From assembly GCA_965203465.1 (NCBI GenBank), contig CBDBCR010000001.1, positions 320,001-384,000 on the forward strand: a DNA stretch of 64,000 bases, given 5' to 3'. This DNA is from Nitrosopumilaceae archaeon (GTDB lineage Archaea; Thermoproteota; Nitrososphaeria; Nitrososphaerales; Nitrosopumilaceae). Of the stretch, positions 33,764-62,110 are shown in pieces. Positions within the stretch are counted from its first letter, which is position 1. Every line of letters starts with the position of its first letter. Both the position numbers and the translations under genes were made by a program. The notes below the pieces were generated by a model. The model saw nothing but the letters and a program-made list of their open reading frames with translations, was not told where the DNA came from and did not search any database.

Positions 33764-34103
33764 CCCTCAGACTTTCCCCCCAAGCGTGCTTTTGACGGCC
33801 AAACGGGTGGCCGATTCTTGCGCCTGTTTATACTTTGAGAATTCTTACAAATCGGCGTGATCTGAGCACGGACGGCCGGAGTGCCAGATTCTGGCGATCG
33901 GGTGTTTTGCGCCGGCTGTGGCCGGATCCCGCACTGCATGAAGACGCGGATCGCAGGCATCTCCGGACACCGACCAGTCTGGCGGCGCTGTAGAGGCGAT
34001 CGATCCCAACGAATGTTGTACCATTGCCCCTGATCTATGTAGCCCTTTATGTTGCCGGGATCTTTCGGATCTAACGGCTGGGCAGATGGCCCACGGGGGC
34101 GGC

Positions 34104-35800: not shown

Positions 35801-36019
35801 AATCTTCGTCTGCTGGGAATTTTCTAGAGCACAAGGACGCGCTCCTACGCACTACGTACAGGCTCGTGCGCGACAGGAGAGATGGTGGCTGCCAGGGGGG
35901 TCAGCGCAGGGACAGCAGACGCGTATTACAGCACACCTCACGAGGATTTGTCGGAATCTTTGGAGTTAGGCAACTAATTCGCGGGCAATCGTTATAGCGA
36001 CGGCGCCGCCCGCGCCGGC

Positions 36020-37270: not shown

Positions 37271-37755
37271 TCGGCGGCCGGCAACCGGCGCGGCCGCTTT
37301 TCTTGCGCGGCGAACCGGCCGTTGGCAAGCACCGCCTCGGCGTGCAGGCACGCAAAGAGAAACGAGGCTGCCTAGCCTGCCCCCGAAGCTCCACGGGAAC
37401 GCGGCCGGCAAGAGCGCCGCCGGCGCCGACTCCGTTGCGCCTGCTAGCCCGGCCGTCGTGGCAGGCTCCGGCAAACGCGCTCTAGACGCGCTGGCGTTCG
37501 CCGGACCGTCGGCCATCGAGTCGCCGTTGCTCGAATTTCTCGGGTAGATGGCCCGCCTGTGCAACATCGGCATGGGCTCGATCAGGACGCTGGGCCAGAC
37601 AGGCATGAGGCCGAGTCGAGTGCCGCGCGGATTACCAGCAAACCCTGAATCGGATCCCGGTAGAAGAGTCAGGTATCTTGATAGGGGGTGCCTACAAGCG
37701 GGCCACAATGATCCGACACGGAATGTTGTTTACCACGTAGATGTGGTGGGTTTGA

Positions 37756-37850
37756 CTTTCCGCATTGCGGCCCCATTGAAGCACCGAGTTTTACCAGGAT
37801 AACGATGTCGGAATCACCTTTCCGCAACTATCAAGTTGCGGCTCCATTCA
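37756..37850 (+). CRISPR. Mini CRISPR-like array: 2 degenerate repeats and one 36-nt spacer
   Basis: CTTTCCGCATTGCGGCCCCATTGAAG (37756-37781), spacer 37782-37817, CTTTCCGCAACTATCAAGTTGCGGCTCCATTCA (37818-37850). Same family as 5415-5786. Confidence 0.75.
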
Positions 37851-38039
37851 GTCAGGCCCGCTAACTCCTAGTTAGTTGCCCAACTCTCTTGTGGAAGGGG
37901 TCGCCTCGCGCCACCTTGCGTCACCCGTGCTTGATTCTCGGGTGGAAAGCGCTCCCTAGCATCGGCAACGGCCCTGCATCGGGGGTTAGGCAACTACCAA
38001 CTCCCGAATTCTTATATTCTTACTGGCGCACGCCCGCCC

Positions 38040-41000
38040 GTGCCGGATACCCGCGTGGAAGGACTGCTTGGCATGTTCGGCGTGGATCCCTCCAAGAGGC
38101 AGAGGCTGGACTTTGGCAGGGGCTGGGAGTGCTACGGCGTGCAGCGGGCAGACGGGACGGATCCTCACGTGCAGGTGGTGCTGGCAGTTAGGGGCCCCAA
38201 GAATCTGGCCGAGCTCAAAAAGGCGATCACGGCAGACTGCATCGTGGCTTTTGTACCCAAGAACGCGCTGTTTCTGAGGGCGCTCGGGGAGAGCTGCTCC
38301 GTAGTGCTGGAAAGCGGCGACGACTATGAGCGCGTCGGAGCGGTGCTGCAGTCCTGCAGTCTTTCCGGCTCCAAGCTCGGAACGGAGTACCTAGGTGGCG
38401 TACGCGAGGCGATCAGGGCCATACCCGTATCCGAGATGCCCGGGATCGTCAACCGCGGCGTCTTTTCCAACCACTACCTAAAGAGCCGGATCTGGGACGA
38501 CCTGCAGCACGACATCGGCCCAGAGGCAGAGCGCGTCGGGGCCGCGATGGGCTCCAGCGCCAAGGCCGTGCTGGCCGCGCTTGGATGGAAGGTCGGCGAG
38601 GCGCCTGGCAGGACGCACAGGTTCGATGGGGCCTCGATAATAGTCGTGCCGAACCGGGACTTGAGCGTCCGCACGCGCGACGACGTGGCCCCCAGCTATA
38701 CCGCTGTGGCCGAACTCCAGCATTCGCAGTGGGTGATCTTGACCAACGGGACGGCGTGGCGGCTGTACACCAGCAGGGTGTCCGCGTCTACCACCAACTA
38801 TTTCGAGATAGACCTTTCGACCAAAAAGGCGGTTCTGGCCAGGTACTTGGCGGCCGTCTTCGGCGCCTCCTCGTATTCGGGCCCGGATCCACAGATCGGT
38901 GTGTTTTTCGAGCAGTCCCTGCTCAAGGCCGGGACGCTACAGGACAACCTGCGGGACAAAATCCTGCGCCCAGACGGCCTGTTCCTGGACATCGTCAAGG
39001 GGGTTCTGAATCACGACATGAAGAAACAGTTCTCCGAACAGGACTTGGAGGGAGCAAAAGAGACCGCCCTGGCGGTCATGTACCGCGTCTGGTTCGTGCT
39101 GTACGCCGAGTCGCGCAACCTGTTGCCGGTGCGCCATTCGGGGTACACAAAGATATCGCTCATGTCGCTGAGAGCAAAGCTGGACGGGTACGAGGGCGAT
39201 CCTGAAGGGGACGGCTGCTGGAGGCACCTGCTGGACCTTTTCGGCAGGATAAAAGACGGCAGCCCGGAGCACAACCTGCCAAAGTACGACGGAGACCTGT
39301 TCAAGAGGAGGGCCGACATCGAGCAGATCGACGTGCGCAACAGGTTCATCGTAAGGGCCCTGCGGGATCTGTTCGAGACCGACGGCGAGCCCGTGGACTA
39401 CGGGGACTTGGGGGTGCGACACCTAGGCAACATTTACGAGTCGCTTCTGTCGTTCAGCGTGCGGCAGGCCAAAAGAGACGTAATGCTGCTCTCTGACCGG
39501 AAGGGCGTACGCGAGGTCGCTTCCAAGGCAGAATCTACCTATTCGTACAGGAAAAACGACCTGTACTTGGCATCAAAGGGCGGGATAATGTCCCGCAAGA
39601 TGTCTGCCAGTTTTTACACGCCGGAGGAAATAGTCAAGTTTCTGGTGAGGCGGGGGCTGGAGCCCCTGTTTCGCGAGCGCGAGGCCAAGGTACCGGAGGA
39701 TGTCGCCAGATACAAGAGCAAGCGATCCGAGCAGAACCGGCGCGCCTGCATCGACAGGTTGCTGGATCTGCAGGTGCTGGATCCGGCCATGGGCTCGGGG
39801 CACTTTCTGGTCGAGGCGCTAAACCAGATCACGCAGTGGGCCACCGAGGTGCTCAACCGCAACCCGGGCCACCCGCTGGTGGCAGAGATCGAGCGGGACA
39901 GACAGACGGTCATCGAAGAGCAGAAAAAGGAGGGAATCAACATAGACCACAGCCTGTTGACGGCCGACGTTCTGTTAAAGCGCCGTGTCATGAAGCGGTG
40001 CATCTTTGGGGTGGATCTGAATGGGCTGGCAGTAGAGCTGGCCCGGCTCTCGCTGTGGCTAGACTCTTTTGCGATCGGGATGCCGCTTACATACCTAAAC
40101 CACCACATCAAGCACGGCGATTCGACTATCGGCTCCTGGCTCGGGGATCTACAGAGCCCCAAGAACCGTTCGCTGGACGATTGGACGCAAGATCTGGGCA
40201 AATACGGCGGGATGCTGGAGAGGGTCAGCGACAGCCCGGACATCACGGTGTCGCAGGCAACAGAGAGCAAAAAAAGCCACCAAGAATACGAGGAGCAGAT
40301 CAGATCCCACCGGCTCATGTTAGACGCGCTTACCGCGTTCAAAATAGAGCCGGAGCTGCTGCCCAAGAAGGCCAAGGCGGCTGACTATCTAGCGAAGCTG
40401 GGCCTTTCGCGGGACGACAAAGAGATCGACGCGGTACAATCAAAGATCCAAAAGCTGGCGTGCAGGTACCGTTTTTTCCACTGGGAACTGGAGATGGTGG
40501 ACGCCTTCACCGACTCGCGGCGCGGGTTTGATCTCGTGGTAGGCAACCCCCCGTGGGAAAAAAACAAACCAGCCCAGGACGAGTTTTTCGCGCCGCACGA
40601 TCCAACTTTCAAACACCTCAAACCTGACACGAAAAAGAAAAAGAGAACCAAAGAGCTGCTCAAAAACCCCCGCCTGCGGAGCTTGCACGAAGCGTACATC
40701 CAGTCGTTCCAAGACAAGGCTGCTTTTTACAAGACCTACGAGCTACAGGGTCCCGGCGACACGGATCTGTGGCAACTGGTGCTGGAGCGCATGCTCAATT
40801 TGGTCTCGGCCGGCGGAACAATCTCGGTATTGGTGCCGTCGCAGATCCTTTCAAACACGGGATCCGCAGACATGCGGAGGAAATTGCTCAACATGGACAT
40901 AAGGCAAGCGTACGTATTCGAAAACCGGAAAAAAATATTCGACATTCACTCGAGCTATCGGTTTGCGTTGCTGACCGTGAGGAACCAGCCCGGCCCCGAC

Positions 41001-42058
41001 GAGTTTAAGGCAGCGTTTTATCTGCATCATTTGTCTTCCCTCAACGACGGTTCTGCCGAAAGCACCAAATTCGTGGCTTGCTCCAAGCAGACCATAAGCA
41101 AAATCTCCCCCGAAGATTTGACGGTGCCGGAAGTCCCCACCAAATCATACGCGCTGCTCGCAAAACTATCAGAACGCCCCACATTGGGATCCATGTCGAG
41201 CGATGGATGGCGGGTATCTCTTGCTCCGGGCTTTCACGATGCTAAGGACGCAGACCTGTTCCGGGAAGACGGCAAGGGTTGGCCCGCACTAAAGGGAAAA
41301 GATATCCACCAGTTCAATCCTGCTTTTGCTGCGCCTGATTTCACCGTGGACCGATCCGACGGACTGCGCAGGCTGGGCAAAAAGAGGGTATATGTAGGAC
41401 ACTGCCCGAAATTCCACGAATCGTACATGTTTGTATTCCGAGACATCGCGCGCTCTACCGACATGAGAACTATGATATCGTCAATTATACCTCCGCATAC
41501 GTTTCATACAGCCTCATTACGTAGCGTTATATTGACTCGTAACCACCTTGCTATGTTTGGTGACTTACACAACCGCAAACTTGCACACTTGGCTGGAATA
41601 ATTAACTCCATACCGTTCGACTTTATCGCAAGGGCGAAAACTCAAATGCACATAGCAACCATATTCAAGCACCTGTTCGTCCCCCGCCCCTCAAAACACG
41701 ACGGGAAAATAGCCCACTTGGCAGCCGTTTTGACTGCGGCGTTACGTGGGGGGGGGATCCGTCGTATTTTGGTGCGTTTGCAGATTCGTTTGGCATCAAA
41801 CCCGAGCATCTGCCTCCTGCACGCCGCATAGATATTACCGCCAGACTCGACGCGCTAGTCGCGCACGCCTACGGCCTGTCCAAAGACGAGTACCGGACGG
41901 TGCTGGACTCGTTCAAGTTTGGCGAGGATCCGTCCCTGCGCGAAGCAGACGAAGCGGACTGGTCTGACAACCGGGTGCTGAGAAAATTCTACGGCGAGGT
42001 ACGCAAGGCGGCCATGCCCCACTTTGAGGAGATCGCCAAGGAGGATGGCCACAAATGA
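38040..42058 (+). CDS. Type IIG (Eco57I-like) restriction-modification adenine methyltransferase, frameshifted at a G9 tract
   Basis: WVILTNGxxWRLY, LGNIYESLL, FYTP, VLDPAMGSGHFL, FFHWELE, GNPPW. The alternative frame after 41756 gives RLDALVAHAYGLSKDEY..LDSF and ends in a TGA overlapping the helicase ATG; G10 gives about 1339 aa. Confidence 0.88.
41748..41756 (+). repeat. Poly-G tract (G9) at the methylase frameshift
   Basis: ttacgt GGGGGGGGG atcc. Confidence 0.9.
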
Positions 42059-45000
42059 CAGAAGAGCCCATAAGGCGCGACATCATCGACAACGTGACCA
42101 AAGGCATAACGATGCAGAAGATGCTCAATTCGGAGATACCGCGGATCAAAAAGTTCGACATCTCCACGGGGTATTTCGACGTGGCGGGGTACGGCATGCT
42201 GCGCGGCGCGCTGGAGCCGGCAGCGCGCGACGGCTCTTTCGAGATGAGGATGCTCCTGGGCAAGGAGGCGCTGCTGCCGCCGGCCGGCTCTTTCGAGCGG
42301 TACGCCGAGCAGTACCGGCAGGCGCCGGGCGCGGATCCCGACCCGCAGGCGCCGCTAAAGTCGAGCCTCGACGAGGCGGACCTAAAGCCCGAGTCGCTTG
42401 CCAGCATATCGGGCCTCATAGAGCTGCTGGGGCGCCCCAACGTGCGGGTGCGGCTCGGCGCCAGCAGGTTCAACCACTCAAAGTGCTACATACTGGGGGA
42501 CAACTCGGCGTTCATCGGCTCTAGCAACTTCACGGCAGGCGGCATGGTGGGCAACTACGAGCTCAACGCCGGGCTGTACCAGCCGAGCGTCGCCGAGGCC
42601 GCCAGGAAGTGGTTCGACCGCATGTGGGACGCGGCCGAGGACGCAAAAGAGGACATGATCAGCGTCCTGAAAAAGTCAAAGTTCGGCATGCCGCCGGACC
42701 CGCACGAGGTGTACATGAAGATGCTCTACGAAAAGTTCGAGCCGTTCCTAAAGCGGGACGACCGGCCCAAGCGCAAGGACGTACAGCTGGCCTCGTTCCA
42801 GCGGGACGCCGTGAACACGGCCATGCACGTGATCTCCAACTACCGCGGCGCGATCATCGCGGATTCGACGGGGCTGGGCAAGACCAACATGGGGATCGAG
42901 ATAGTCCGGCAGAAGATCCTGGACGAGGGCAGAAAAGTAATGCTGGTGGCGCCGGCCCAGGTCCTGCGCGGCATGTGGGAGGACAAGCTAAAGGACGTCG
43001 ACATATCCGTCCGCCGCATGGTGACCATGGAGTCCCTCGGACGGGCGGACTTCCTGAAAGACGCCAAGCAGTACCGCAACATCGACTTTATCCTGATAGA
43101 CGAGTCGCAGAACTTCCGCTCAAAGACGGCCCAGCGGCGGCTCAACCTGATGAGCCTGCTGCACGTGGGCAAGCCGAAGCAGGTGCTGCTGCTCACGGCC
43201 ACCCCCATCAACAACTCGCTGATGGACCTGTACTACCAGCTCAGCATAGTGACCGCGGGGGACGACCAGTACTTTTGGGACACGGTCGGTATCACGGACC
43301 TGTACAAGCACATGCGCGACGCCACCAACAAGGACCTGCAGCGCGGGCTGGAAAAGATCCAGCAGCTGCTCGACAGCGTGATGATACGCCGGACGCGCTC
43401 GTTCATACGGCAGGTGTACCCGCACGACACCATAAACGGGCAGCCGATAAGGTTCCCCGAGCACGAATACAAGCCGATAAACTACGACCTGGCCGGCCTC
43501 TTCGGCAACGTATTCGAGCGCATCTTCAAGGACATGGGATCCCTCACCATGGCGCCGTACGGGATAGACAGGTACAACAAGTCGCTGCCCGAGGAAAAGA
43601 GAAAAGCCCACGGGACGCTTGCCCGACTGCAGGTGATCCTGCTGCTAAAGAGGTTCGAGTCGAGCGTGGAGGCGGTCCGCATAAGCCTCGGCAACAAGGT
43701 GCGCATGTACGAGCACGTCAGGAGGACGCTGCGCGGGGGCAGGATGCTCCGGGTCCGGGACTTTAACAGGGCGCTCGGCCAGTGGAGCAACCAGGAAATG
43801 GAGAGCGAGGGGGAGGGCGAGGAGGACAGGGAGGCGCAGCTCGTAGAGTCGGTCGAGGCGCTGGCCACCGAAGACGCGGGCGACTACGACACGAAGACCA
43901 TGCTGGCGGACATCGAGGCGGATTTGGAAAAAATGCGCAGCCTGCAAAAAGAGATAGGGCGCATCACGGTCGATACGAAGTTCGACGCTGTCGCCAGGTC
44001 CATACTGGAAGAGCGGGCGCTCGAGAAAGAGGGCGGCAAGGTGCTCGTGTTCACCGAATACACGGCGACCGCAAAGTACGTGCACAAAAAGCTAAAGGGG
44101 GTGTTCCCCGACAAGGAGATACTGCTGATACACGGGCGCACGGATCCGGACGACCGCAGGGAGCGCGTGCGGCGGTTCTCGCCCAAGGCCAACCTGCCAG
44201 AGGACGAAGACCTGGATGGGAAGGAGGCCGACATATTGGTGTCCACCGAGGTACTGGCCGAGGGGCAGAACCTGCAGGACTGCAACTACGTCGTGAACTA
44301 CGACCTGCCGTGGAATCCCATGAGGATAGTGCAGCGGACGGGCAGGATAGACAGGCTGACAACAAAGCACGAGACGGTCCACTCGCGCGCCTGCTTTCCG
44401 GACAAGCAGCTGAACGAAATACTAGAGCTGGTGGCCAAGCTGCTCTCCAAGCTAGACACGGCGGCCGCGGTCCTGGGCTCGGACGTGGTGATACTGGGCA
44501 GGATGCCAAGCTCCAAGATCTACGGCCAGCTGGACGAGGACCTGCGGGCGCTGGTGGGGGCCGACGGGGCCAAGAGCCGCAAGGTAGCCGAGCGCCTCGA
44601 GTCCGAGTCGGACATGATGGCCAGGACGCCGATCAACGAGATCATCGAGCACGTCAAGGAGATAGGGCTCGACGCCATGAGGGAGGTGCCCCTCGGGCGG
44701 CGCAGCGGCAAGCGGGGCGAGGGGCAGAAGGCTGTCTTGGCGTACCTGCAGGACGGGCGCGTCCGCAGGGTGCACTTTGTGATATACGACTATGCGGACG
44801 GCCGCGCCTACGTGCCGGATACGGACACCGAGGCGATCAGGCTGGCCTCGTGCGCGTCCGAGGCGCCCCTGCACCTGCCGATGGACGGAGAAGAGCACCG
44901 CGAATCGTTCGAGGAGCTGCTCCGCATAGACGGGCCGGCGCGGCGGGCCGTGCTCGACAGGGACAGGGAAGGCAGGAAAAAGGTGGCCGATCTGCAGCAA

Positions 45001-45381
45001 AGGAGGAAGCAGCACGACAAAAACACGTACGAGCTCGTATCGGCGCTGGTGGGGGCCGCCATGGACGGGCAGGTGACCCACGAGGAGGCCGACGGGGCGC
45101 GGCGCGTCCTAGAGTCGGCGCACATGAGATCCTGGCCCGCCAAGTCCCGGGAGTTTCTGGAAGAATACAAAAAGGGCGAGGATCCCGCGGCGCTGGCGGC
45201 CAAGATACGAAAGTTCGCGGACAGCATGTACTTTGAGGACGAGGGGGAGGCCCCTCCCCCGAAAGAGCAGGAGGCAAAGCTGAAACTGGTAGGGGCGATC
45301 TTTGTGATGGACGGGTTCGACCCCGGCTTGGGCCGAAAGGGGCTGGAAAAGTACCAGGGCGGCGCGCAAGATCCGGCCTGA
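42055..45381 (+). CDS. PLD-nuclease / SNF2-family helicase fusion
   Basis: HSKCYILGD..IGSSN (HKD motif), ADSTGLGKT, DESQ, TATP, AEGQNLQ, YDLPWNP, QRTGRIDR. Confidence 0.92.
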   Translation: MTEEPIRRDIIDNVTKGITMQKMLNSEIPRIKKFDISTGYFDVAGYGMLRGALEPAARDGSFEMRMLLGKEALLPPAGSFERYAEQYRQAPGADPDPQAPLKSSLDEADLKPESLASISGLIELLGRPNVRVRLGASRFNHSKCYILGDNSAFIGSSNFTAGGMVGNYELNAGLYQPSVAEAARKWFDRMWDAAEDAKEDMISVLKKSKFGMPPDPHEVYMKMLYEKFEPFLKRDDRPKRKDVQLASFQRDAVNTAMHVISNYRGAIIADSTGLGKTNMGIEIVRQKILDEGRKVMLVAPAQVLRGMWEDKLKDVDISVRRMVTMESLGRADFLKDAKQYRNIDFILIDESQNFRSKTAQRRLNLMSLLHVGKPKQVLLLTATPINNSLMDLYYQLSIVTAGDDQYFWDTVGITDLYKHMRDATNKDLQRGLEKIQQLLDSVMIRRTRSFIRQVYPHDTINGQPIRFPEHEYKPINYDLAGLFGNVFERIFKDMGSLTMAPYGIDRYNKSLPEEKRKAHGTLARLQVILLLKRFESSVEAVRISLGNKVRMYEHVRRTLRGGRMLRVRDFNRALGQWSNQEMESEGEGEEDREAQLVESVEALATEDAGDYDTKTMLADIEADLEKMRSLQKEIGRITVDTKFDAVARSILEERALEKEGGKVLVFTEYTATAKYVHKKLKGVFPDKEILLIHGRTDPDDRRERVRRFSPKANLPEDEDLDGKEADILVSTEVLAEGQNLQDCNYVVNYDLPWNPMRIVQRTGRIDRLTTKHETVHSRACFPDKQLNEILELVAKLLSKLDTAAAVLGSDVVILGRMPSSKIYGQLDEDLRALVGADGAKSRKVAERLESESDMMARTPINEIIEHVKEIGLDAMREVPLGRRSGKRGEGQKAVLAYLQDGRVRRVHFVIYDYADGRAYVPDTDTEAIRLASCASEAPLHLPMDGEEHRESFEELLRIDGPARRAVLDRDREGRKKVADLQQRRKQHDKNTYELVSALVGAAMDGQVTHEEADGARRVLESAHMRSWPAKSREFLEEYKKGEDPAALAAKIRKFADSMYFEDEGEAPPPKEQEAKLKLVGAIFVMDGFDPGLGRKGLEKYQGGAQDPA

Positions 45382-53967: not shown

Positions 53968-56631
53968 ATGAGCAAGACCGGCATGGATCGCGAAACCCCA
54001 GAGGCGCCGGCCATCGAGCAGATAAGGAAGCGCAACGGGAAACTGACCGTCTTCGACCCCGAAAAGATCCGCAGCGCCGTGTACCGGGCGCACGCCTCGA
54101 TAGGCAAGCCCGACCGCGACCTGGCCGGCAGGGTCTGCGAGCGCGTCATGGACCGGATAAAGAGGGACCTGGACGCGCGCCGCGAGCACCCCACCGTCGA
54201 GGCCATACAGGACGTCGTGGAATCGACCCTCATAGACATGAAGCTGAGCGCCATAGCAAAGGCCTACATCGTGTACCGCCTCGAGAGGCGCAAGCTGCGC
54301 GACGAAAAGATGTCCATACTCAACGCCGAAGAGCTCGATCCCGTCTCCAAGGACTTTGACGTAAACTGCCTGAGGGTGCTGGCCTCGAGGTACCTCATGC
54401 GCAACAACAAGAACGAGATAACAGAGAGCCCTACGCAGATGTTCGAGAGGGTGGCGCTGCTGGTCGGCATAGGCGACATGCTCTACGACCAGTCGATCTT
54501 TGACAAGAGCGGCGGGCACCGGCAGGACCCCGCCGAGGCCAGGGAGTACTATACAAAGCTGGACAACTTTGACAACAAGTTCTCCGTGGGCCCCTACTAC
54601 CTCAACAAGTACCACTTTAGGGCCCTGATAGGCCACTACGCGGAGCTGGCCTCGGCCGGCCGGATGAAGGTCGGCTTCAAGGAGCTGCTGACCATGCTGG
54701 CAGCGCACAAGCTCGATTCGTACGCCGAGAGGATATCGTCGTACTTTGAGCTGATGGCCTCGCAGGACTTTCTGCCCAACTCGCCTACCATGATGAACGC
54801 CGGCGGCCGGCTCGGGCAGCTCTCCGCCTGCTTTGTGCTCGACATGCCCGACGACATGGAGGGGATAATGAAGTCCACCTCGGACGCGGCCCTCATATTC
54901 AAGTCCGGCGGCGGGGTGGGCATAAACTACTCGGACCTGAGGCAGGAGGGGGACATCGTGGCCTCGACGTCGGGCGTGGCCTCCGGGCCGGTCTCGTTCA
55001 TGAACATCATAAACACCGTCACCGAGGTAGTAAAGCAGGGGGGCAAGAGGCGCGGGGCCAACATGGGGATACTGGAGGTCTGGCACCCCGACGTCGAAAA
55101 GTTCATCTCCAACAAGACGCAGGCCGGCGTGCTCGAGAATTTCAACGTCAGCGTCGGGATGTGGGAGGACTTTTGGAAGGCCCTGGTGGACGACAAGAAC
55201 GGCAAGTACATGCTGCGCGGCAGCCGCGACAGGGGCCCCGTAAAGGAGACCAGCGCGCACCAGATATTCGACCTCATAGCCCTGTCGGCGTGGAAGAGCG
55301 CCGAGCCGGGGCTGATATTCTTCGATCAGATAAACAAGTACAACGTCTTCGCAAAGGCGCGCGGCGGGCCGCTGCGCGCGACCAACCCGTGCGGCGAGCA
55401 GAGCCTCTACCCGTACGAGTCGTGCAATTTGGGATCCATAAACCTGGCCAACATGGTAAAGCGGCAGGGCGAGGGCTACGAGTTCGACTGGCAGCGCTAC
55501 GAGCAGATAATACGGCAGACCACGCGGTTCCTCGACGACATCATCGACGTCAACAACTACCCGGTCCCCGAGATCGACTCGGCCTCCAAGGAGTCGCGCA
55601 GGATTGGCCTCGGGGTGATGGGCGTGGCCGACCTGCTGTACAAGCTAAAGATACCGTACAACTCGAAAGAGGGCTACGAGCTCCAGTCGGCCCTGGCAGA
55701 GGCGCTCACGTACTATTCGATGGAGGAGAGCGTAGAGCTGGCAAAGTCGCGCGGGCAGTTTTCGCTCTGCCCCCGGACAGAATACCCCGACGGCAAGGTG
55801 CCCGTCGCGGGGTACTACGAGACCGACGCGTCCGAATCCGCCTACGAGTGGGACGCGCTGATAGACAAGGTGCGCAGGTACGGCGTGCGCAACGTGCTGA
55901 CCACCACGGTGGCCCCCACGGGCACGCTCTCGATGATCGCCGACTGCAGCAACGGCATGGAGCCGACCTTCGCGCTCGTCTTCGAAAAGCGCGTGACCGT
56001 CGGGAGGTTCTTTTACACCAACAAGATATTCGAAAAGGCGCTGCGCGACTGCGGCCTGTACTCTGACGAGCTGCTCAAAAAGATAGCCGACAACTACGGC
56101 TCGGTGCAGGGCATGGACGAGATACCCGAGTGGATGAGGCGCGTCTTCGTGACGGCCATGGACATACACTGGGCCGACCACCTGTACGCGCAGTCCATAT
56201 GGCAGAGGTGGATAGGCAACGCGATAGCAAAGACGATAAACATGCCCTACGACGTGACCGTCGAGGACGTAAAGGCGGCGTATTTGCTGGCCCACGAGAT
56301 GGGCCTAAAGGGGATAACCGTGTACAGGGACGGCTCGCGCCACGCGCAGGTGCTCCACATGACCAGCTCGCAGGCCGCGAAGAACTTCGACGTGGCGCCC
56401 ACCGGCCACGTGACCGACTTTGTGCGGCGCCACGCGGCCAACCCCTACATACGGGCCCAGATAGACGAGGCGCTGCGCCTCAAAGAGCCGCCCGAGCCGG
56501 TCCCCGACGCCGAGGCGCCTGCCCCCGAGATGGACCGCGAGACGTGCCCCGCGTGCGCTGCCAACCTGGTCTTCGCCGAGGGGTGCCACCTGTGCATCGA
56601 GTGCGGGCACAGCGGCTGCACTTCCGGGTAG
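53968..56631 (+). CDS. nrdJ: Adenosylcobalamin-dependent (class II) ribonucleotide reductase
   Basis: ATP cone IRKRNG; PNSPTMMNAG, LSACFV, RRGANM, TNPCGEQ, APTGT, KGITVYRDGS; C-terminal CxxC..EGC..CxxCG. Confidence 0.95.
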   Translation: MSKTGMDRETPEAPAIEQIRKRNGKLTVFDPEKIRSAVYRAHASIGKPDRDLAGRVCERVMDRIKRDLDARREHPTVEAIQDVVESTLIDMKLSAIAKAYIVYRLERRKLRDEKMSILNAEELDPVSKDFDVNCLRVLASRYLMRNNKNEITESPTQMFERVALLVGIGDMLYDQSIFDKSGGHRQDPAEAREYYTKLDNFDNKFSVGPYYLNKYHFRALIGHYAELASAGRMKVGFKELLTMLAAHKLDSYAERISSYFELMASQDFLPNSPTMMNAGGRLGQLSACFVLDMPDDMEGIMKSTSDAALIFKSGGGVGINYSDLRQEGDIVASTSGVASGPVSFMNIINTVTEVVKQGGKRRGANMGILEVWHPDVEKFISNKTQAGVLENFNVSVGMWEDFWKALVDDKNGKYMLRGSRDRGPVKETSAHQIFDLIALSAWKSAEPGLIFFDQINKYNVFAKARGGPLRATNPCGEQSLYPYESCNLGSINLANMVKRQGEGYEFDWQRYEQIIRQTTRFLDDIIDVNNYPVPEIDSASKESRRIGLGVMGVADLLYKLKIPYNSKEGYELQSALAEALTYYSMEESVELAKSRGQFSLCPRTEYPDGKVPVAGYYETDASESAYEWDALIDKVRRYGVRNVLTTTVAPTGTLSMIADCSNGMEPTFALVFEKRVTVGRFFYTNKIFEKALRDCGLYSDELLKKIADNYGSVQGMDEIPEWMRRVFVTAMDIHWADHLYAQSIWQRWIGNAIAKTINMPYDVTVEDVKAAYLLAHEMGLKGITVYRDGSRHAQVLHMTSSQAAKNFDVAPTGHVTDFVRRHAANPYIRAQIDEALRLKEPPEPVPDAEAPAPEMDRETCPACAANLVFAEGCHLCIECGHSGCTSG

Positions 56632-56633
56632 GC

Positions 56634-57161
56634 TTGGAGCGGCGCTACTCCAATTCAATGTGGCAGGCCGGCTACAAGATATTGGGCGACGGCAGGTGGT
56701 TTTTCGGGTGCATGGACGACGCCTCGCGCCTGGTGACGGGGTTCGGCCTCGCCGGCGAGCCCTCGGGGGGCCACGCCCTCGGGGTGATCGCGCGGGCCGT
56801 CTCGGAGCGCGGCAGGCCCGCCTCGGTGCTGACCGGCCGCGTGCGCCCGTTCTACGGCGCGGCCGCGACCGAGTTCGAAAAGGGGCTGGCCGCGCTGGGC
56901 GTGCGGCACCTGCTGCCGTCCCCCGGCCTGACGGTGGGCAAGCTGGCCAGGTTCGGCCAGATGCAGCGCAATCTGCCGGGGTTCGAAGAGGCCTCGGCGC
57001 GCGGCCCGGGGCACGTGGGCGGGCCGTTCTGCACCGACGGGCCGCGGGATCCGGTGGAGAGGCTGGTCGAGTGGCACAACGACGCGCTGCACATGTCGCT
57101 GGGCGGGGGCCAGACGCCCGAGCAGGCGTTCGCGAGCAGGGCGGCCCCCCGGGAAGCCTAG
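56634..57161 (+). pseudogene. Degenerate integrase-core (IS481-like) transposase remnant
   Basis: ERRYSNSMWQAGYK..GRW..MDDASR..P.SVLTG..GKLARF..WHN..HMSL..TP; the DDE residues are replaced and no HTH is present. Confidence 0.7.
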
Positions 57162-57236
57162 GCGGGGCCCTGCCGGAGCCCGCGCTGCCGCCTGCGCAAA
57201 CGCGCGCCGCTTTTCTGCGGGGGCCTCGGCGGGCCC

Positions 57237-58286
57237 CTACATCCCCCTCATGTCCAGCCCGATCTCTATCCGGTGCTTGCGCGCCTCGTCCAAATCGAAC
57301 GATTCCACGTGCGTCCTGCCGCAAACCTCGTGCATCTGAAAGACGGACACGTATTCCTTCGACGGCGCTATCTCTATGGCGCGTTCGGCCAGCTCGTCGC
57401 TGTGGGTGGCCAGGAATACCTGGTTGCCGTAGTCCCTGCACCCCCTGAGCAGCTCTTCGACTACGTGGTACATCAGCGCCGGGTGCGTGCTGTTCTCCGG
57501 CCCTTCGATGGCCATCGTGCCCCCCCGCAACAGGTGGCTGGACATGGACAGCAGCACGGCGGAGCGGAATCCGTCGCCCACGAGGCTAATGGGCCTCTTG
57601 GCGCCGCTTTCGAAGAACACGTACGTCTCGCCGCCGATCTGCTGTATGTCGATCACCTCTCGGGTATATCCTTTCAGCCTGGAGACCACGTCGCGCATCT
57701 TGCCGGAACTGGACGCCCGGCTGCACAGCTCTTTTTGCGCAAGATCCGGATTTTTCACAAACAGGCTCGAGCCGGCCGCGGCGCCGGAAGGCGCGGTTTC
57801 GGACAGGATGTCTGCGCCGGCTACGTATAGCCTTCCTAGCACGCGGGAGCCGCCGCGGAAATAAAAGTAAAACTCGCGGCGCGCGCCTTTCCGATCCGAC
57901 GCCCCGCCTTGACTACTAGATCCGATCTCTTTCATCCGCCCGGCATCCGGAATCTCCTCCATGTCGTGCAACGATCCGGCCATTTCCAGCGTCTCGACGG
58001 CGCCCGTGTCCAGAACGCCCCTCACCGCGGCGTTCTTCCTGTCGCCGTGGACGATGTAATCCCAGCCTCCGCCGATCTCGACTCTGCGCCCGAGGATCTG
58101 CTCCAGCGTGCTCTCGCCGAACGCGTTCCTGAACATATGCTGCCCGGAGCTCATCAGGGATATCGCCTCCAGGCACGAGGACTTGCCCGCGTTGTTGCGG
58201 CCCACCAGTATGTTGAGGCGGCCCAGCTTGTCCAGCACCACGTCGTCCGCCCCGCGGAACCCCGAGATCCGTATCTGCTTGTACAC
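57237..58286 (-). CDS. AAA_15/AAA_21-type (ABC-like) ATPase
   Basis: IRISGFRG, GRNNAGKSS, VGDGFR signature, IEGPENSTHP (atypical Walker B), FLATHS. Confidence 0.85.
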   Translation of the reverse strand: MYKQIRISGFRGADDVVLDKLGRLNILVGRNNAGKSSCLEAISLMSSGQHMFRNAFGESTLEQILGRRVEIGGGWDYIVHGDRKNAAVRGVLDTGAVETLEMAGSLHDMEEIPDAGRMKEIGSSSQGGASDRKGARREFYFYFRGGSRVLGRLYVAGADILSETAPSGAAAGSSLFVKNPDLAQKELCSRASSSGKMRDVVSRLKGYTREVIDIQQIGGETYVFFESGAKRPISLVGDGFRSAVLLSMSSHLLRGGTMAIEGPENSTHPALMYHVVEELLRGCRDYGNQVFLATHSDELAERAIEIAPSKEYVSVFQMHEVCGRTHVESFDLDEARKHRIEIGLDMRGM

Positions 58287-58413
58287 GCGGGCCGCGCCGC
58301 GGACCCGCCTTTAATTTTGTACGGCCCCGGCGGTTCGGGCAGAGCACTTGGGGAACGCGGGCATCCGGGCGTTTTCGGGGCCGTGCCGAAGGCCGGCCGG
58401 CAGGGGACTTTGG

Positions 58414-59799
58414 CTACCCGAAGCGCAGGCTGCCGCAGAAGCAGCCCGGCTTTACGGCCGGCGTGCGGTGGTCGCAGAACTCGTTGGCCACGTCGACGTA
58501 CGAGACCGAGCCGCCCGATCCGCCGTACATGCCCAGCAGCCCGAGGAGCTTGTCGGTGCCCAGGCACGCGGCCCACGTGGTGAGCGTGACCGCCGACGGC
58601 TGGTGCGGCTCGTAGTACCCCGACTCCTCCTTTGCCCTCCTCTGCCCCTCGTCGAGGCACTCGTCTGCCAGCCTCATGCCGTCGATCTGGCCCGTGCACC
58701 ACAGGCACGCCGTGGAAGGGGTGACCAGCTGCGCGCGTATCGTGGCCTCGAACCTGCCTTTCGTGACCACGTTGCAGCCCACGTCGATGAGGGGGCGGTA
58801 GTGCTCCAGCGCCGCGGCGTTGAGGCGGTCCCTGCTCCTCATGCTGTCGGTGCAGCAGATCACCGCGTCCGATTCCATGGCGGCCTCCAGGTGCTCTTTC
58901 CGGCAGACGTCGCCCACCGTCGAGCGCACCTCCGAGTCGGAGAACGATTCCAGGTGCTCGCGCACCACGTCCGCCTTGGCGGCCCCCACGTGCCTCCTGG
59001 AGGATCCGTGGAGCCTGCTGACGTTGCTCTCCTCGACCGAGTCGGGATCGATCAGCCTAATGCGCCGCACCCCCAGCCGCGCAAGCTGCACGGCCACGCC
59101 GGATCCCACGCCGCCGGCGCCCACCACGCACACGTCCAGGCCGCGCACGCGCCCGTGCGTCTCCGGGCCCAGCATGGACGCCTGGCGCGCGTAGACGCCG
59201 CCGGCCGCTCCGTCCCGCCGGCACGGCGCGCCCCGGTCCGCGCGCCCCAGCGTCTTTCCCACCACGTCTATCCTGGATACCGTGTGGTCGCTTCCGCCGT
59301 GGTGCGCCACGGCGTGCATGCCCGCGCCGCTCACCACCGCGCTTGCGGCGGGGCGGCCGTCGAGCAGCTCGGCCATGTCGCGGAAGAACGTCCTGTTGGC
59401 GCTCTCGTCCGTGCCGCTGAACGACGGGGGGTGGTCGGGGGACGGGTGCGTGTGGACGAACAGCAGGCACGAGCCGGCCCTGTCGGCCTCTTCGACCGCC
59501 CTGTTGAGGTACGCCGACGACGGGCTGATGCTGCCGGGCCCCCGCTCGGACCACGAGCCAGGCCCGGGCAGCACGGCTTCCCTGACCAGAAGGCGCTGCC
59601 CTGATCCCGACGCGTGCCAGTCGGCCCTCAGATAGCACCCGTTTTCGAGCGGGCTCCCCTCCTCCAGGAACGCGGACACGCGCTCGTACAGGCCAGACGG
59701 GAACGCTATGGCCCACTCTTGGCGGGGCGCGCCTTTGGATTTTTCGTCCTTCCGGGCTGGCGCCGCGGGGCGGCCCGGCCGTCTGCTAAAAAGCGGCAC
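58414..59799 (-). CDS. JAB/MPN metalloprotease fused to ThiF/E1 adenylation domain
   Basis: JAB: ENGC..HTHP..FSGTD. E1: YARQ, GAGGVGS, IDPDSVEESNVSR, CTD, DVG, CLWC..SGYY..CFCG. Confidence 0.9.
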   Translation of the reverse strand: MPLFSRRPGRPAAPARKDEKSKGAPRQEWAIAFPSGLYERVSAFLEEGSPLENGCYLRADWHASGSGQRLLVREAVLPGPGSWSERGPGSISPSSAYLNRAVEEADRAGSCLLFVHTHPSPDHPPSFSGTDESANRTFFRDMAELLDGRPAASAVVSGAGMHAVAHHGGSDHTVSRIDVVGKTLGRADRGAPCRRDGAAGGVYARQASMLGPETHGRVRGLDVCVVGAGGVGSGVAVQLARLGVRRIRLIDPDSVEESNVSRLHGSSRRHVGAAKADVVREHLESFSDSEVRSTVGDVCRKEHLEAAMESDAVICCTDSMRSRDRLNAAALEHYRPLIDVGCNVVTKGRFEATIRAQLVTPSTACLWCTGQIDGMRLADECLDEGQRRAKEESGYYEPHQPSAVTLTTWAACLGTDKLLGLLGMYGGSGGSVSYVDVANEFCDHRTPAVKPGCFCGSLRFG

Positions 59800-59801
59800 G
59801 C

Positions 59802-60194
59802 TCAGTCACCGTTCTCGAACCTCCGGTCCACGTATTCCATGAAACTGGCCAGGTCGTCCCTGGCGGGATCCCATCCGCAGTCGGCGTACGGGTGGATGCT
59901 CCACTGCAGCCATTCTTTCCCCATGTGGGCCACCGTAAAGGTGCCCTCCGGCCGCCCGTCGCCCTTGAGCAGGGTGTCGCACGGGGTGAAAAACATGTCG
60001 AACGGGGTCTTGGGGTAGTGTACGGTGTTTGTGATCATCACGCTAGTCCTGTCCCTGTTGTACCGTGCAGACCGTATGGGATAGTCCGCAAACACGACGT
60101 ACACCATCTCGTTTTCCGCGCGCACCACGGTGCCCCGTAGGCCCCGCCTGCCCTCGAACTCTTTTACCTCGCCGAGCAGCTGCTGCGGGATCAT
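59802..60194 (-). CDS. Prokaryotic E2/UBC-fold protein (E2 family E-like, WSxH motif)
   Basis: YP..PFDMFF, WLQWSIH, W.P..DDL..F; sits between the Ubl and the JAB-E1. Confidence 0.8.
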   Translation of the reverse strand: MIPQQLLGEVKEFEGRRGLRGTVVRAENEMVYVVFADYPIRSARYNRDRTSVMITNTVHYPKTPFDMFFTPCDTLLKGDGRPEGTFTVAHMGKEWLQWSIHPYADCGWDPARDDLASFMEYVDRRFENGD

Positions 60195-60451
60195 GCGCCG
60201 TACGTGTTGCTCCTTCGTATCGCGCGCAACTGCATGCCCGGCGTGACCGAAACTTCGTGCTCCCTGTCAAGCGGCTCCCCGCCGACCCCCACGACGAACA
60301 GGTCGTATTCGTTGATCTCGCTGTCCGGATATCCGGCCTTTTCGAGCAGCTCCGCCACTGTGGCCTGCCCGCCGGGGCCCAGACTGACGGTCTTTTTGTT
60401 TATTTTTATCTCGACGGCCGGGTTTTCGCTCGGCGCGTCCACGTTGCTCAT
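60191..60451 (-). CDS. Ubiquitin-like beta-grasp protein ending ..TYG-A
   Basis: VEIKINKKTV, TVAELLEKAG, YDLFVV, V.V..GMQLRA; penultimate Gly; ATGA overlap with the E2 gene. Confidence 0.75.
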   Translation of the reverse strand: MSNVDAPSENPAVEIKINKKTVSLGPGGQATVAELLEKAGYPDSEINEYDLFVVGVGGEPLDREHEVSVTPGMQLRAIRRSNTYGA

Positions 60452-60527
60452 TGGGAAGCGTGCGGAGGCCGCGTTAATATTTCTTTTAACATTGCATATT
60501 TAAGCCCGAAGTTTCACGCCCGCGGCG

Positions 60528-60866
60528 TTGGATCCGGCCGGTTTCGATCAAAGCTCCGTCTTGGTAAGCTCGTCCATACTGGCGGGCCTGCTCGGTGCGG
60601 GGTTTTTTGCGGCCCAGCAGCTTGCCCGCGGCACGTATTCGGATCCAAGGCCGACTATAATGCCCTTGTACGCGTTCGGCCTGCTCTCGGTAATCTTTCC
60701 GTTCGCGATTATAATGGCCGTGATCGCCGGGCTGTACCACGCGTATCTTCACTTTGCGCTGCTTTCTGGCATGCTTGCGTGCGTTGGACTGTATTTGCGC
60801 CTCTTGTACAAAATGCGCTACGACGAGTATTCGTACGGAGCGTGGAGCGACAATACGACGCGCTGA
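60528..60866 (+). CDS. Small integral membrane protein (about 3 TM)
   Basis: Three hydrophobic segments; divergent from the Ubl operon across an AT-rich spacer (60474-60503). Confidence 0.6.
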   Translation: MDPAGFDQSSVLVSSSILAGLLGAGFFAAQQLARGTYSDPRPTIMPLYAFGLLSVIFPFAIIMAVIAGLYHAYLHFALLSGMLACVGLYLRLLYKMRYDEYSYGAWSDNTTR

Positions 60867-60875
60867 CCCACAGCG

Positions 60876-61133
60876 TCAGGCCATGTCCCTGCGCTCTACT
60901 ATCATGTCCTGCATGCTTTTGAGATCGTCCCGGACTTCGGTAAAGTTTTTCGCGATATGGTCAAAGAGCACGATCCCGAACTCGTACTCTTTCGTCTTTA
61001 GGATCTGATCCAGCGCGCGGCGGGCGATCCTGAGGTGGTCTTTTCCGTCGGGGTTTTCCGACCTGATCTCCCTCATGCGGCGCATGGTCAGATTCAGCCT
61101 CCTCTCGTCGAGCACGGACATGCTTTCGCTCAC
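60876..61133 (-). CDS. Hypothetical helical protein (85 aa)
   Basis: Protein-like composition; TATATTT on the minus strand about 25 bp upstream. Confidence 0.55.
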   Translation of the reverse strand: MSESMSVLDERRLNLTMRRMREIRSENPDGKDHLRIARRALDQILKTKEYEFGIVLFDHIAKNFTEVRDDLKSMQDMIVERRDMA

Positions 61134-61258
61134 GCCTCAACGGCCGTCCGTTGGCAAATATATCTTGCGCAAGGGCCGTGCCCGGACCGCCATGCGCGCA
61201 GCGGAGGAATCCAAGCCGCCTCTAAAGCAATTAATACGGCCGGGCGGGGGCCGGGGCC

Positions 61259-61747
61259 GTGTACAGCCCAGGCGGGACGGTCGACACGCTCGGCCTCCTA
61301 TTCGACAAGCTCCAGTCGCTCTTCGACGAATCGCAGGGCTACTACGAATCCTTCCTAGACACAAACAACCTGTACAAGCAGGGCAAGCTGTCCGACAAGG
61401 AGTTTTTCCAAAAGCTGGGCGACTACGTGGTGGCATATTCCGCACTCGAGTTCCTCGCCGTAAAGGTGCTCTTTGAGGTCCGCAAGTCGCTCGGGCCCGT
61501 CCAGACGCAGTCGCCGGGCCTCATGCCGGGCGTGGGGCAGCCGGGTCCGGCCGCCGGCCCGCATCCGGGCTCCGCCTCCAACCCGGTCGGGGGCCCGCCC
61601 GGCATCGTCTCGGCGGCAGAGGGCTTCGGCAGGCCGGGGACCCTGCCCGCGCCGGACAGGTCCGCGGATCCGGGGTGCGGCTCGTGCGGGGCCGAGCTGC
61701 GGGCCGGCGCCAAATTCTGCACAAAGTGCGGCGCGCGCGCGGCCTAG
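61259..61747 (+). CDS. Zinc-ribbon domain protein
   Basis: Helical N-terminus, Pro/Gly linker, CGSCG..AKFCTKCG. Confidence 0.8.
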   Translation: MYSPGGTVDTLGLLFDKLQSLFDESQGYYESFLDTNNLYKQGKLSDKEFFQKLGDYVVAYSALEFLAVKVLFEVRKSLGPVQTQSPGLMPGVGQPGPAAGPHPGSASNPVGGPPGIVSAAEGFGRPGTLPAPDRSADPGCGSCGAELRAGAKFCTKCGARAA

Positions 61748-61783
61748 AAACCAATATACGTAAACCCGGCGCCGCCGCGGCCG

Positions 61784-62110
61784 TTGAAGGTCTTTGACGG
61801 CAAAAAGGCGGCGCAGGAATACATGTCGGCCCACACGCTGGCCTTTTCGACGCCCGAGATGACGCTGACCCGGTTTGCAATGTGGCTGGGCGACGCGGTG
61901 CCCGACCCGTCGGATCCTTCAAAGACGATGCCGCGCACCGACTCTTTTCTGACGGACGGGCGGCCCTCGCAGGTGGTCGACGACCGCTACCAGCCCAGCG
62001 GGGCCGTGCTCCACACCGGGCCGGCCGGGGGGCGCTTCTGCCCCGAGTGCGGCGCGGCAGTCTCCAAAGAGGCCAAGTTCTGCCCCGAGTGCGGCAGCGG
62101 CCAGGACTAG
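61784..62110 (+). CDS. Zinc-ribbon domain protein
   Basis: FCPECG..AKFCPECG at the C-terminus. Confidence 0.8.
   Translation: MKVFDGKKAAQEYMSAHTLAFSTPEMTLTRFAMWLGDAVPDPSDPSKTMPRTDSFLTDGRPSQVVDDRYQPSGAVLHTGPAGGRFCPECGAAVSKEAKFCPECGSGQD

Follow-up and report, generated by a model that had tools for sequence, protein, structure and literature searches.

A probable Bub-like ubiquitin-like conjugation operon from a mostly archaeal clade that lacks BubE

Introduction

To our knowledge, no ubiquitin-like cascades other than the Bub pathways work without catalytic cysteines. Type I Bub operons (formerly called 6E.1 or DUF6527 operons) encode BubAB, BubCD, and BubE, with the prototype being from Citrobacter sp. 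RHBSTW-00271, and Type II Bub corresponds to 6E.2 (Ye, Gong, Chambers & Corbett, bioRxiv 10.1101/2024.11.21.623953; hereafter, the Bub preprint). Here, we describe a three-gene operon from the Nitrosopumilaceae archaeon GCA_965203465.1 that encodes a ubiquitin-like protein (Ubl), an E2-like protein, and a fusion of a JAB protease domain to an E1-like domain. We analyzed 64,000 nucleotides (nt) of contig CBDBCR010000001.1 (positions 320,001–384,000 of the forward strand), which we will call the window. We propose that the operon is probably a working ubiquitin-like conjugation system of the Bub (6E) kind and that it belongs to a distinct clade of three-gene loci, mostly archaeal, that lack BubE.

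According to the Bub preprint, BubAB is a fusion of a Ubl and an E2 that is cleaved by the JAB domain after a conserved glycine, and all of the Type I operons are described as having this fusion. BubCD has the JAB residues E28, H91, H93, and D104, uses R227 for adenylation, and has an invariant tyrosine (Y370) in the crossover loop, with no cysteine there. BubB uses S333, H335, and D299. The residues that were mutated in the preprint are E28/D104, R227, Y370, and S333/H335, and conjugation was lost in the Y370F and S333A/H335A mutants. BubE is a DUF6527 serine protease, and the preprint states that bubE is present in all Bub operons.

By full-text search, Bub operons are treated in the literature by preprints from the Corbett lab and by a study of CapK/CapS. 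Because the published catalogue of Bub operons was seeded from DUF6527-containing operons (Methods of the companion preprint), a branch without BubE would be invisible to it. In Table S1 of the Bub preprint, a Type II Bub operon is assigned to one archaeon, Candidatus Nitrosopumilus adriaticus, and the words archaeon, Thaumarch, and Cenarchaeum do not appear in that table.

Results

Three tightly coupled genes

The operon is on the minus strand of the window. The first gene encodes the BubA-like Ubl (60191..60451; 86 amino acids), which is a single beta-grasp domain that ends with RRSNTYGA. It is followed by the BubB-like E2 of the Prok-E2_E family (59802..60194; 130 amino acids), which contains the motif WLQWSIH and the residues D66, S99, and H101, and then by the BubCD-like JAB-E1 fusion (58414..59799; 461 amino acids), which has a GTG start codon. 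The ATG of the E2 gene overlaps the TGA of the Ubl gene (ATGA), and the GTG of the JAB-E1 gene lies 2 nt past the stop codon of the E2 gene. An initial annotation of this DNA had pointed out these couplings, the NTYG-A end of the Ubl, and the WLQWSIH, HTH..S..D, CLWC, and GY motifs, and every one of them is where it was said to be.

Upstream of the Ubl gene, a divergent intergenic region of 76 nt contains an AT-rich patch (60473..60504) with two TATA-like words. As read from the sequence, one word is about 25–30 nt from the start codon of the Ubl gene, and the other is at a similar distance from the start codon of a divergent gene for a membrane protein. In a genome with 65% G+C, this patch is a predicted two-way archaeal promoter region. 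(A scan for sigma-70 promoters and terminators was set aside, as it is inapplicable to archaea.)

The gene order from ribonucleotide reductase through an ATPase, JAB-E1, E2, and Ubl to a gene for an 85-amino acid protein recurs in contigs from independent public sequencing runs, so misassembly is unlikely. The supporting contigs from three runs span 55651–59174, 57533–61246, and 58442–61420, and near-identical copies of the operon are present in runs from several studies. In one run, the summed contig depth of the flanks was greater than that of 56.9–61.3 kb, with no contig joining across the island. This would fit with an island that is carried by a minority strain, but contig depth cannot rank regions, and we do not claim it.

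Our analysis establishes the homology of the three proteins, their folds and conserved residues, and the linkage and distribution of their genes, which we describe below.

The JAB-E1 fusion resembles BubCD

The JAB domain spans approximately residues 29–190 of the fusion protein. It has an HTH...S..D motif and includes E52, H116, H118, S128, and D131. The E1 adenylation domain spans approximately residues 200–461 and includes GxGxxG (227–232), R262, D318, the CLWC cysteines C365 and C368, G394-Y395 in the crossover loop, and C455. In Pfam, the protein matches a single ThiF domain (residues 203–385, E = 3.9e-31) and, weakly and below the cut-off, Prok-JAB (E = 0.0039). When we compared a profile built from 28 homologous sequences (alignment A1) to the PDB, the best match was to BubCD from Citrobacter (9ea4; E = 1.6e-63, profile positions 3–404), followed by MoeB (E = 4.1e-25).

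In alignment A1, the invariant columns are E52, H116, H118, S128, D131, and R205, along with the glycines of GxGxxG, D251, R262, K275, D318, C365, C368, G394-Y395, and C455. As in proteins of the ThiF/MoeB type, C365, C368, and C455 probably bind a structural zinc. The crossover loop of the window's E1 also contains C381, which is next to the invariant E380, and the other sequences in A1 have serine or leucine at this position.

The E2 resembles BubB and has the same catalytic residues

The E2 belongs to the Pfam family Prok-E2_E (PF14462; E = 3.1e-14). Word-based protein searches returned just seven proteins for the E2 and one for the Ubl, so we assembled the alignments of both from the loci. 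In the E2 alignment (A2, 47 sequences), the invariant columns are P61, D66, S99, H101, and W108. The AlphaFold2 model of the E2 has a predicted local distance difference test score (pLDDT) of 96.1, and in Foldseek it superimposes on Citrobacter BubB (9eae_C) with E = 1.4e-6, TM-scores of 0.79/0.80, and a root-mean-square deviation of 1.9 Å. Canonical E2s rank behind BubB, with TM-scores of about 0.45–0.49. Furthermore, the only match of the A2 profile in the PDB is Citrobacter BubB (E = 7.7e-22), and in that alignment the aspartate of YP..DMF and the serine and histidine of WSxH align with their BubB equivalents. The E2 also has two cysteines (in ..TPCDT.. and ..ADCGW..), and neither of these is conserved in A2.

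The window's operon keeps equivalents of all of the residues that were shown to be catalytic in Bub. As read from the profile–PDB alignments, in which the PDB chains are numbered with an offset from the preprint, the JAB residues E28, H91, H93, and D104 of BubCD correspond to E52, H116, H118, and D131; the E1 residues R227 and Y370 correspond to R262 and Y395 (the tyrosine of ERGY); and D299, S333, and H335 of BubB correspond to D66, S99, and H101 of the E2. The initial annotation had expected serine and tyrosine as catalytic residues, and the Ser-x-His and the tyrosine of Bub are indeed conserved across the E2 and E1 alignments.

The Ubl ends just past a conserved glycine

On its own, the Ubl has only one hint in Pfam (ThiS, E = 0.11). 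Its orthologues match Multi_ubiq (PF14452), and the window's protein is itself below Pfam's detection. The AlphaFold2 model (pLDDT 79.7) has ubiquitin, NEDD8, and ISG15 as its top matches in Foldseek, and it also matches the multi-ubiquitin protein of E. coli ZDHYS365 (TMq 0.65). The profile of the Ubl alignment (A3) matches that same protein in the PDB (E = 8.8e-10). It had been asked in advance whether the 86-amino acid protein is a beta-grasp protein and whether the 130-amino acid protein has a UBC fold; the ubiquitin-fold matches and the TM-score of 0.79 to BubB answer both in the affirmative. Together with the Pfam and PDB profile matches, they also bear out the assignment of the three genes to the Bub/6E family, as a Ubl, a serine-type E2, and a JAB-E1.

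Gly85 is nearly invariant in A3 and aligns with the glycine of the INPG end of the bacterial Ubls. In the window's Ubl, it is followed by a single extra residue, Ala86, and in the sister copy from the same genome (see below) the following residue is arginine. Half of the 32 Ubl records from the window's clade (16 of 32) end exactly at the conserved glycine, as PYG, NFG, or TFG; another 15 have 1–10 extra residues; and one ends differently. The initial annotation had the JAB domain removing the terminal alanine. This is plausible from the sequence, as the glycine before Ala86 is the conserved end of the Ubl.

A clade of three-gene loci without BubE

Homologue searches split the JAB-E1 family into the window's clade (clade A) and a bacterial clade (clade B). 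The nearest relatives of the window's JAB-E1 are archaeal or unassigned metagenome proteins (36–68% identity), versus 26–33% identity for bacterial BubCD-like proteins. We inferred a quick maximum-likelihood tree from 61 E1 sequences, in which the core of clade A (25 rows) and clade B (33 rows) each had 96 for support in the Shimodaira-Hasegawa-like approximate likelihood ratio test (SH-aLRT). The window's E1 is sister to the second copy from its own genome (support 95), and it also groups with the E1 of an uncultured Cenarchaeum sp. (support 100). Another two sequences from thaumarchaea are on long deep branches. If the tree is rooted with Type II BubBD, then the archaeal lineages are basal; but the outgroup branch has 9.4 changes per column, so that long branches meet, and because of its length we do not conclude any direction of transfer.

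The loci of clade B have five genes, encoding Multi_ubiq, Prok-E2_E, JAB-E1, DUF6527, and an SDH/ClpP-like protease. Of the 34 clade B loci from genomes, 33 have DUF6527 (the exception is on a 2.9-kb contig) and 28 have the SDH protease. Using hidden Markov models built from the genome loci, we also found DUF6527 in all 53 bacterial-type loci from metagenomes; among the 47 with at least 800 base pairs (bp) downstream, all 47 had DUF6527 and 46 had the SDH protease. We noticed that this SDH/ClpP-like (NfeD-like) serine protease, which follows DUF6527, is thus a near-constant fifth gene of the bacterial JAB-E1 Bub operons. The main text of the Bub preprint has no mention of SDH, ClpP, or NfeD.

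Clade A comprises 48 records, which we reduced to 36 distinct loci by merging those whose E1s were at least 97% identical. The Ubl is present in 32 of these loci and the E2 in 34. The loci that are missing one or the other are cut by a contig end or broken, and there is also a divergent locus (G009) whose Ubl was missed by the profile. Neither DUF6527 nor an SDH-type protease was found in any of the 36 loci, 27 of which have at least 800 bp downstream. Furthermore, searches of five other carrier genomes for DUF6527 (E up to 0.01) found it nowhere in any of them (0/5). In the window's genome, the sole match to DUF6527 (PF20137) is 350 kb away from the operon, inside a complete Type II Bub operon.

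That Type II operon is at C1:729355-732531 and encodes a Multi_ubiq protein (81 amino acids), a DUF6791+ThiF protein (400 amino acids), and DUF6527 (133 amino acids). It is flanked by genes for a Type ISP/Eco57I-like methylase, a DUF5131 protein, and a GMT-wHTH protein.

The operon is an accessory element with native-looking composition

We scanned for the E2 motif of clade A and found 12 loci with named hosts: 8 from Nitrososphaerota, 1 from Bathyarchaeia, 1 from Thermoplasmata, and 2 from Bacteroidota. The Ubl-E2-JAB/E1 layout is found at each of the 12. In the phylum that the window belongs to, Prok-E2_E is above the cut-off in just 3 of 401 sampled genomes, all of them in the window's family. 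Among 40 relatives, full-length matches to the JAB-E1 are confined to two genomes besides the window's own, with none in the four genomes of the same genus. These results agree with the expectation of the initial annotation that the operon would not be core in the phylum. Clade A also includes many contigs from soil and other metagenomes. When the DNA of one soil contig (L067) was compared to the 401 genomes, there were only three short matches (68–70% identity), in one flanking gene.

In the four same-genus genomes, the interval between the genes for ribonucleotide reductase and ribosomal protein S19e is 2.3–2.8 kb and has three other genes, versus 5.5 kb in the window, and none of the nine open reading frames (ORFs) of the window's interval are found in that interval of those genomes. 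So the operon is an accessory element in a variable interval. The S19e protein itself agrees with the placement of the host, as all 80 of its listed relatives (61–68% identity) are named as Nitrosopumilaceae-type members of Nitrososphaerota or, more generally, as archaeal. In the syntenic region of same-genus genomes (L143-L146), the G+C content is 0.39 and 0.49, versus 0.65 in the window's genome.

The initial annotation had viewed the operon as bacterial-type and horizontally acquired. That view is not supported in this form: the closest relatives are archaeal or from metagenomes, the clade is separate from the bacterial one, and BubE is missing. Furthermore, the island's G+C content (0.659, versus 0.650 for the genome) and its G+C content at third codon positions (0.79–0.92) look native, and because the composition matches the host, a recent import from bacteria is not supported.

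Linked and neighboring genes

Of the 32 distinct clade A loci with at least 1.5 kb of upstream sequence, 22 have a divergent upstream gene for a protein with an HFX_2341_N domain and a winged helix (the 22 include a weak fragment beside the third copy in the window's genome, which is described below). This HFX_2341-like protein is 50–68% identical across most of the loci and has weak Csa3/CARF-like matches in Pfam. Directly after the E1, 7 of the 36 clade A loci encode a protein of about 265 amino acids with a C-terminal TIR domain. All six aligned members match TIR_2 in Pfam (best E = 1.6e-13), and in the PDB the profile matches the TIR domains of SARM1, tir-1, and SPARTA with E near 1e-3. 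Other loci have restriction-modification genes, MazE, or SocA as neighbors. Neither the HFX_2341-like regulator nor the TIR gene is present at the window, at its sister copy, or at the Cenarchaeum locus.

On the other side of the putative promoter region, the window encodes a small membrane (TM) protein without a Pfam family (60528..60866, plus strand; 112 amino acids). Using tblastn, we found homologues of it at C1:882226-882546, beside the paralogous operon (36% identity), and beside the Cenarchaeum sp. locus L020 (33% identity). The TM gene is paired with a gene for an 85-amino acid helical protein (60876..61133, minus strand). A 48%-identical copy of the 85-amino acid protein is beside the paralogous operon, and the window and the sister copy share both of the small proteins. 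The 85-amino acid protein is from a small unnamed family, with 12 representatives among 1.84 billion proteins, and searches of Pfam and of PDB profiles gave only chance-level matches. A search of a protein atlas gave no usable match for either protein. We regard the TM protein and the 85-amino acid protein as no more than possible members of the system.

Downstream of the operon by 127 nt is a gene for an AAA_15/AAA_21 ATPase (57237..58286, minus strand; 349 amino acids), which has its own AT-rich patch upstream. The ATPase matches AAA_15 (E = 2.2e-19) and AAA_21 (E = 2.2e-17) in Pfam, and PDC-M38A (E = 2.5e-27) and AbiLi (E = 1.5e-25) in PADLOC. With tblastn, no homologue of it was found beside any other clade A locus. 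At the edge of the variable interval, a remnant of an integrase core (56652..57161, plus strand) lies within an ORF at 56130-57161; its match to Pfam rve is below the cut-off (E = 0.00025).

Two adjacent genes at 61259-62110, for proteins of 162 and 108 amino acids that each end in a zinc ribbon, fill the variable interval up to S19e. This pair was not found in the same interval of the same-genus genomes. Farther away, 13–25 kb from the operon (32330-45381), the window has a series of genes of restriction and defence types, which encode an HNH endonuclease, an MmeI-type fragment, an Eco57I-type methylase of 1263 amino acids, and a PLD-SNF2 helicase of 1108 amino acids.

Other copies in the same genome

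A second intact copy of the module (C1:882226-884989) comprises genes for the TM protein, a protein of about 90 amino acids, a Ubl that ends in YG-R, the E2, and the JAB-E1. These proteins are 36–63% identical to those of the window, but the two small genes, as a pair, are inverted with respect to the operon. On either side of the module is an NAD-epimerase-like gene, as judged from the GxGxxG starts.

A third copy (C3:199751-202978) looks decayed. All that is left of its E2 is a C-terminal ORF of 79 amino acids, in which the equivalents of the aspartate and the histidine are replaced, and the serine motif of its JAB domain is altered. A gene for a SocA/Panacea antitoxin is nearby.

Discussion

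The proposed pathway

By homology with Citrobacter Bub, the window's operon would use oxyester chemistry. We propose that the Ubl is made with Ala86 after Gly85 and that the zinc JAB domain would trim off Ala86, as suggested by the cleavage by BubCD after the conserved glycine. The E1 domain would then use ATP to adenylate Gly85, and the Ubl would be transferred to Tyr395 of the crossover loop, as an oxyester. From there it would pass to Ser99 of the E2, with help from His101 and Asp66, and finally to lysines of the targets.

The JAB domain is probably the sole deconjugating enzyme as well. DUF6527 and the ClpP-like protease are absent, and although trimming is unnecessary for about half of the Ubls from the clade, the JAB site is intact throughout. 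This suggests that the JAB domain also acts as a deconjugase.

As for the biological role, the context suggests that a function in defence or in a stress response is most likely, because the locus is accessory, because it lies in a variable interval with a defence-type ATPase next to it, and because its relatives are coupled to TIR effectors. An antiviral role, which the initial annotation had thought probable, may be suggested by the context.

Several observations weigh against a working Bub-like system with such a role. The oxyester chemistry is carried over entirely by homology from one bacterial system, and a thioester route through C381, in the window's protein alone, is conceivable. The authors of the Bub preprint report that they found no phage protection for any Bub operon. 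The window has neither a TIR gene nor the HFX_2341-like regulator that most of the clade has, and its neighboring ATPase is not conserved with the operon. We also scanned viral contigs by pattern, and none of the 52 matches was a relative, so there is no signal of an arms race. Finally, the third copy in this genome looks decayed, so selection on these cassettes may be weak.

Alternative explanations

We also considered that the same biochemistry might have a role other than defence against viruses, as a regulatory or stress-response modifier of host proteins, for instance in a host-associated life style. This would fit with the lack of phage protection by any Bub operon (bioRxiv 10.1101/2024.11.21.623953), the native composition, the lack of relatives on viral contigs, and the lack of a recognisable effector gene within the window's operon. 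It would also fit with the intact appearance of both the window's copy and the copy at C1:883 kb, which are sister lineages, as would be expected if the function had been retained. However, the distribution is patchy even inside the genus; the variable interval adjoins an integrase remnant and a defence-type ATPase; and among the relatives there are couplings to TIR proteins and also neighboring restriction-modification and toxin-antitoxin genes. We consider a non-antiviral role rather unlikely. That a larger Bub operon lost BubE and its effector, and that what is left at the window is inactive or decaying, seems quite improbable. BubE and the ClpP-like protease are indeed absent, there is an integrase remnant nearby, and the third copy in the genome has a truncated E2 with its aspartate and histidine equivalents replaced. 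But at the window, all three ORFs are intact and tightly coupled and every catalytic residue is kept. Furthermore, the layout without BubE is common to 36 distinct loci from three archaeal phyla and Bacteroidota, which points to a stable architecture, and near-identical copies were found in runs from several studies.

A thioester cascade, from an E1 cysteine (C381 or the CxxC pair) to an E2 cysteine, is also improbable. There is a cysteine in the crossover loop of the window's E1 and there are two in the E2, but we count C381 and the E2 cysteines as unconserved in A1 and A2, in contrast to Tyr395 and Ser99/His101/Asp66, which are invariant, and the likely function of C365, C368, and C455 is to hold a structural zinc. 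The idea that the operon encodes a sulfur carrier, with a ThiS/MoaD-like protein and a ThiF/MoeB-like adenylase for the thiolation of cofactors or tRNA (as with the small archaeal modifier proteins (SAMPs) and UbaA), is disfavoured and seems very improbable. It would account for ThiS being the Ubl's only direct hint in Pfam, for the E1 domain's matches to ThiF/MoeB models (all far below their cut-offs), and for the CxxC pair. But it seems inconsistent with a dedicated E2 that has a conserved Ser-His-Asp, with the fused JAB protease, and with a Ubl that ends in YG-A rather than GG. BubCD is also by far the best match in the PDB, ahead of MoeB; the system is not core in the phylum; and there is a separate ThiF-type match elsewhere in the genome (C1:613084-613482).

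A broader proposal and its implications

Going beyond the proposal of a working Bub-like system, we tentatively suggest a third type of Bub pathway, which would be native mainly to archaea (Nitrososphaerota, Bathyarchaeia, and Thermoplasmata). In such a pathway, the JAB domain would be both the maturase and the sole deconjugase, conjugation of the Ubl would control variable effectors, and the CARF-like HFX_2341-type regulator would govern expression. The effectors might be the TIR NADase-type protein (7 of 36 loci) and possibly, in the window's subclade, the membrane protein and 85-amino acid pair. This proposal is possible, but we do not consider it likely. If it is true, then it would be an archaeal immune system that is gated by cysteine-free ubiquitin-like tagging. 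The archaeal three-gene form may also be older than the bacterial five-gene form, rather than derived from it.

In any case, there is a compact three-gene branch without BubE, dominated by archaea, and it is repeatedly wired to a TIR effector and to a ligand-sensor-like regulator. It offers a minimal system for probing oxyester chemistry and a natural test of whether a JAB domain can replace BubE. The members that are linked to TIR genes give a concrete handle on the purpose of Bub conjugation.

Comparison with known systems

Bil (bacterial ISG15-like) has a Ubl-E2-JAB-E1 gene set with an antiviral role, and it uses catalytic cysteines (bioRxiv 10.1101/2024.11.21.623953). The window's operon is another prokaryotic set of this kind. 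But the E1 of Bil is IAD-AAD-CYS and its JAB is separate, while the E1 at the window has just one adenylation domain, which is of the homodimer type, and no Cys domain. With its single ThiF domain and no conserved catalytic cysteine, the window's operon does not belong with Bil. In type II CBASS, E1, E2, and JAB machinery (Cap2/Cap3) regulates an immune effector, which might be an analogy for the clade members that are linked to TIR genes. However, Cap2 is a cysteine-type E2-E1 fusion that conjugates the CD-NTase, without a Ubl, and within the window's protein, the matches to PADLOC's E1-E2 models are limited to the E1 domain.

Type II Bub (BubA, BubBD, and BubE) has the same Ubl family and a crossover-loop tyrosine in the E1. 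But its E2 is a DUF6791-type domain that is fused to the E1, it has no JAB domain, and BubE is present.

The window's operon shares several features with Type I Bub. Both have a Multi_ubiq-type beta-grasp Ubl with a conserved C-terminal glycine (as judged for the window's Ubl by its model, profile, and orthologues), a Prok-E2_E with Ser-x-His plus Asp and without a catalytic cysteine, and a JAB domain with an intact zinc site that is N-terminal to a homodimer-type E1 with the adenylation arginine. In both, the crossover loop has the invariant tyrosine and no conserved cysteine, and the gene order is the same. On the other hand, instead of a BubAB fusion, the window has one gene for the Ubl and another for the E2, which overlap at ATGA; neither BubE (DUF6527) nor a ClpP-like protease is present; and the Ubl is a single domain, with a PYG or YG end instead of INPG. 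The E1 is only distantly related to those of bacteria (26–33% identity), and the host range is mostly archaeal. The usual regulator of the clade is HFX_2341-like, and Pfam scans of the flanking ORFs found no CapW or CapH/CapP. Judging from these sequences, the window's operon is Type I Bub-like but misses two of the stated defining features, the AB fusion and BubE.

In all 28 of the bacterial relatives that we examined, the Ubl and the E2 are also separate ORFs, with the Ubl ORF extending 0–10 residues past the glycine of INPG, so the AB fusion may not be a defining feature of the family. (We dropped the idea that the stop codon between them is read through: the two genes are in the same frame in 10 of 28 pairs, and about one-third are expected by chance.)

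Among archaeal systems, SAMP/UbaA is similar in that Ubls are conjugated and there are JAMM proteases. But SAMPs end in GG and need no E2, while the window's Ubl ends in YG-A and an E2 is present. Against the NCBIfam model for UbaA, the window's E1 scores 45.9 bits versus a cut-off of 450 bits, and it is also far below the cut-off for MoeB. The eukaryote-like ubiquitin cascade of the Caldiarchaeum type has a cysteine-type E2 and a RING E3. Beside the SAMPs and the Caldiarchaeum-type cascade, the window's operon adds a third kind of archaeal Ubl conjugation, which is not eukaryote-like.

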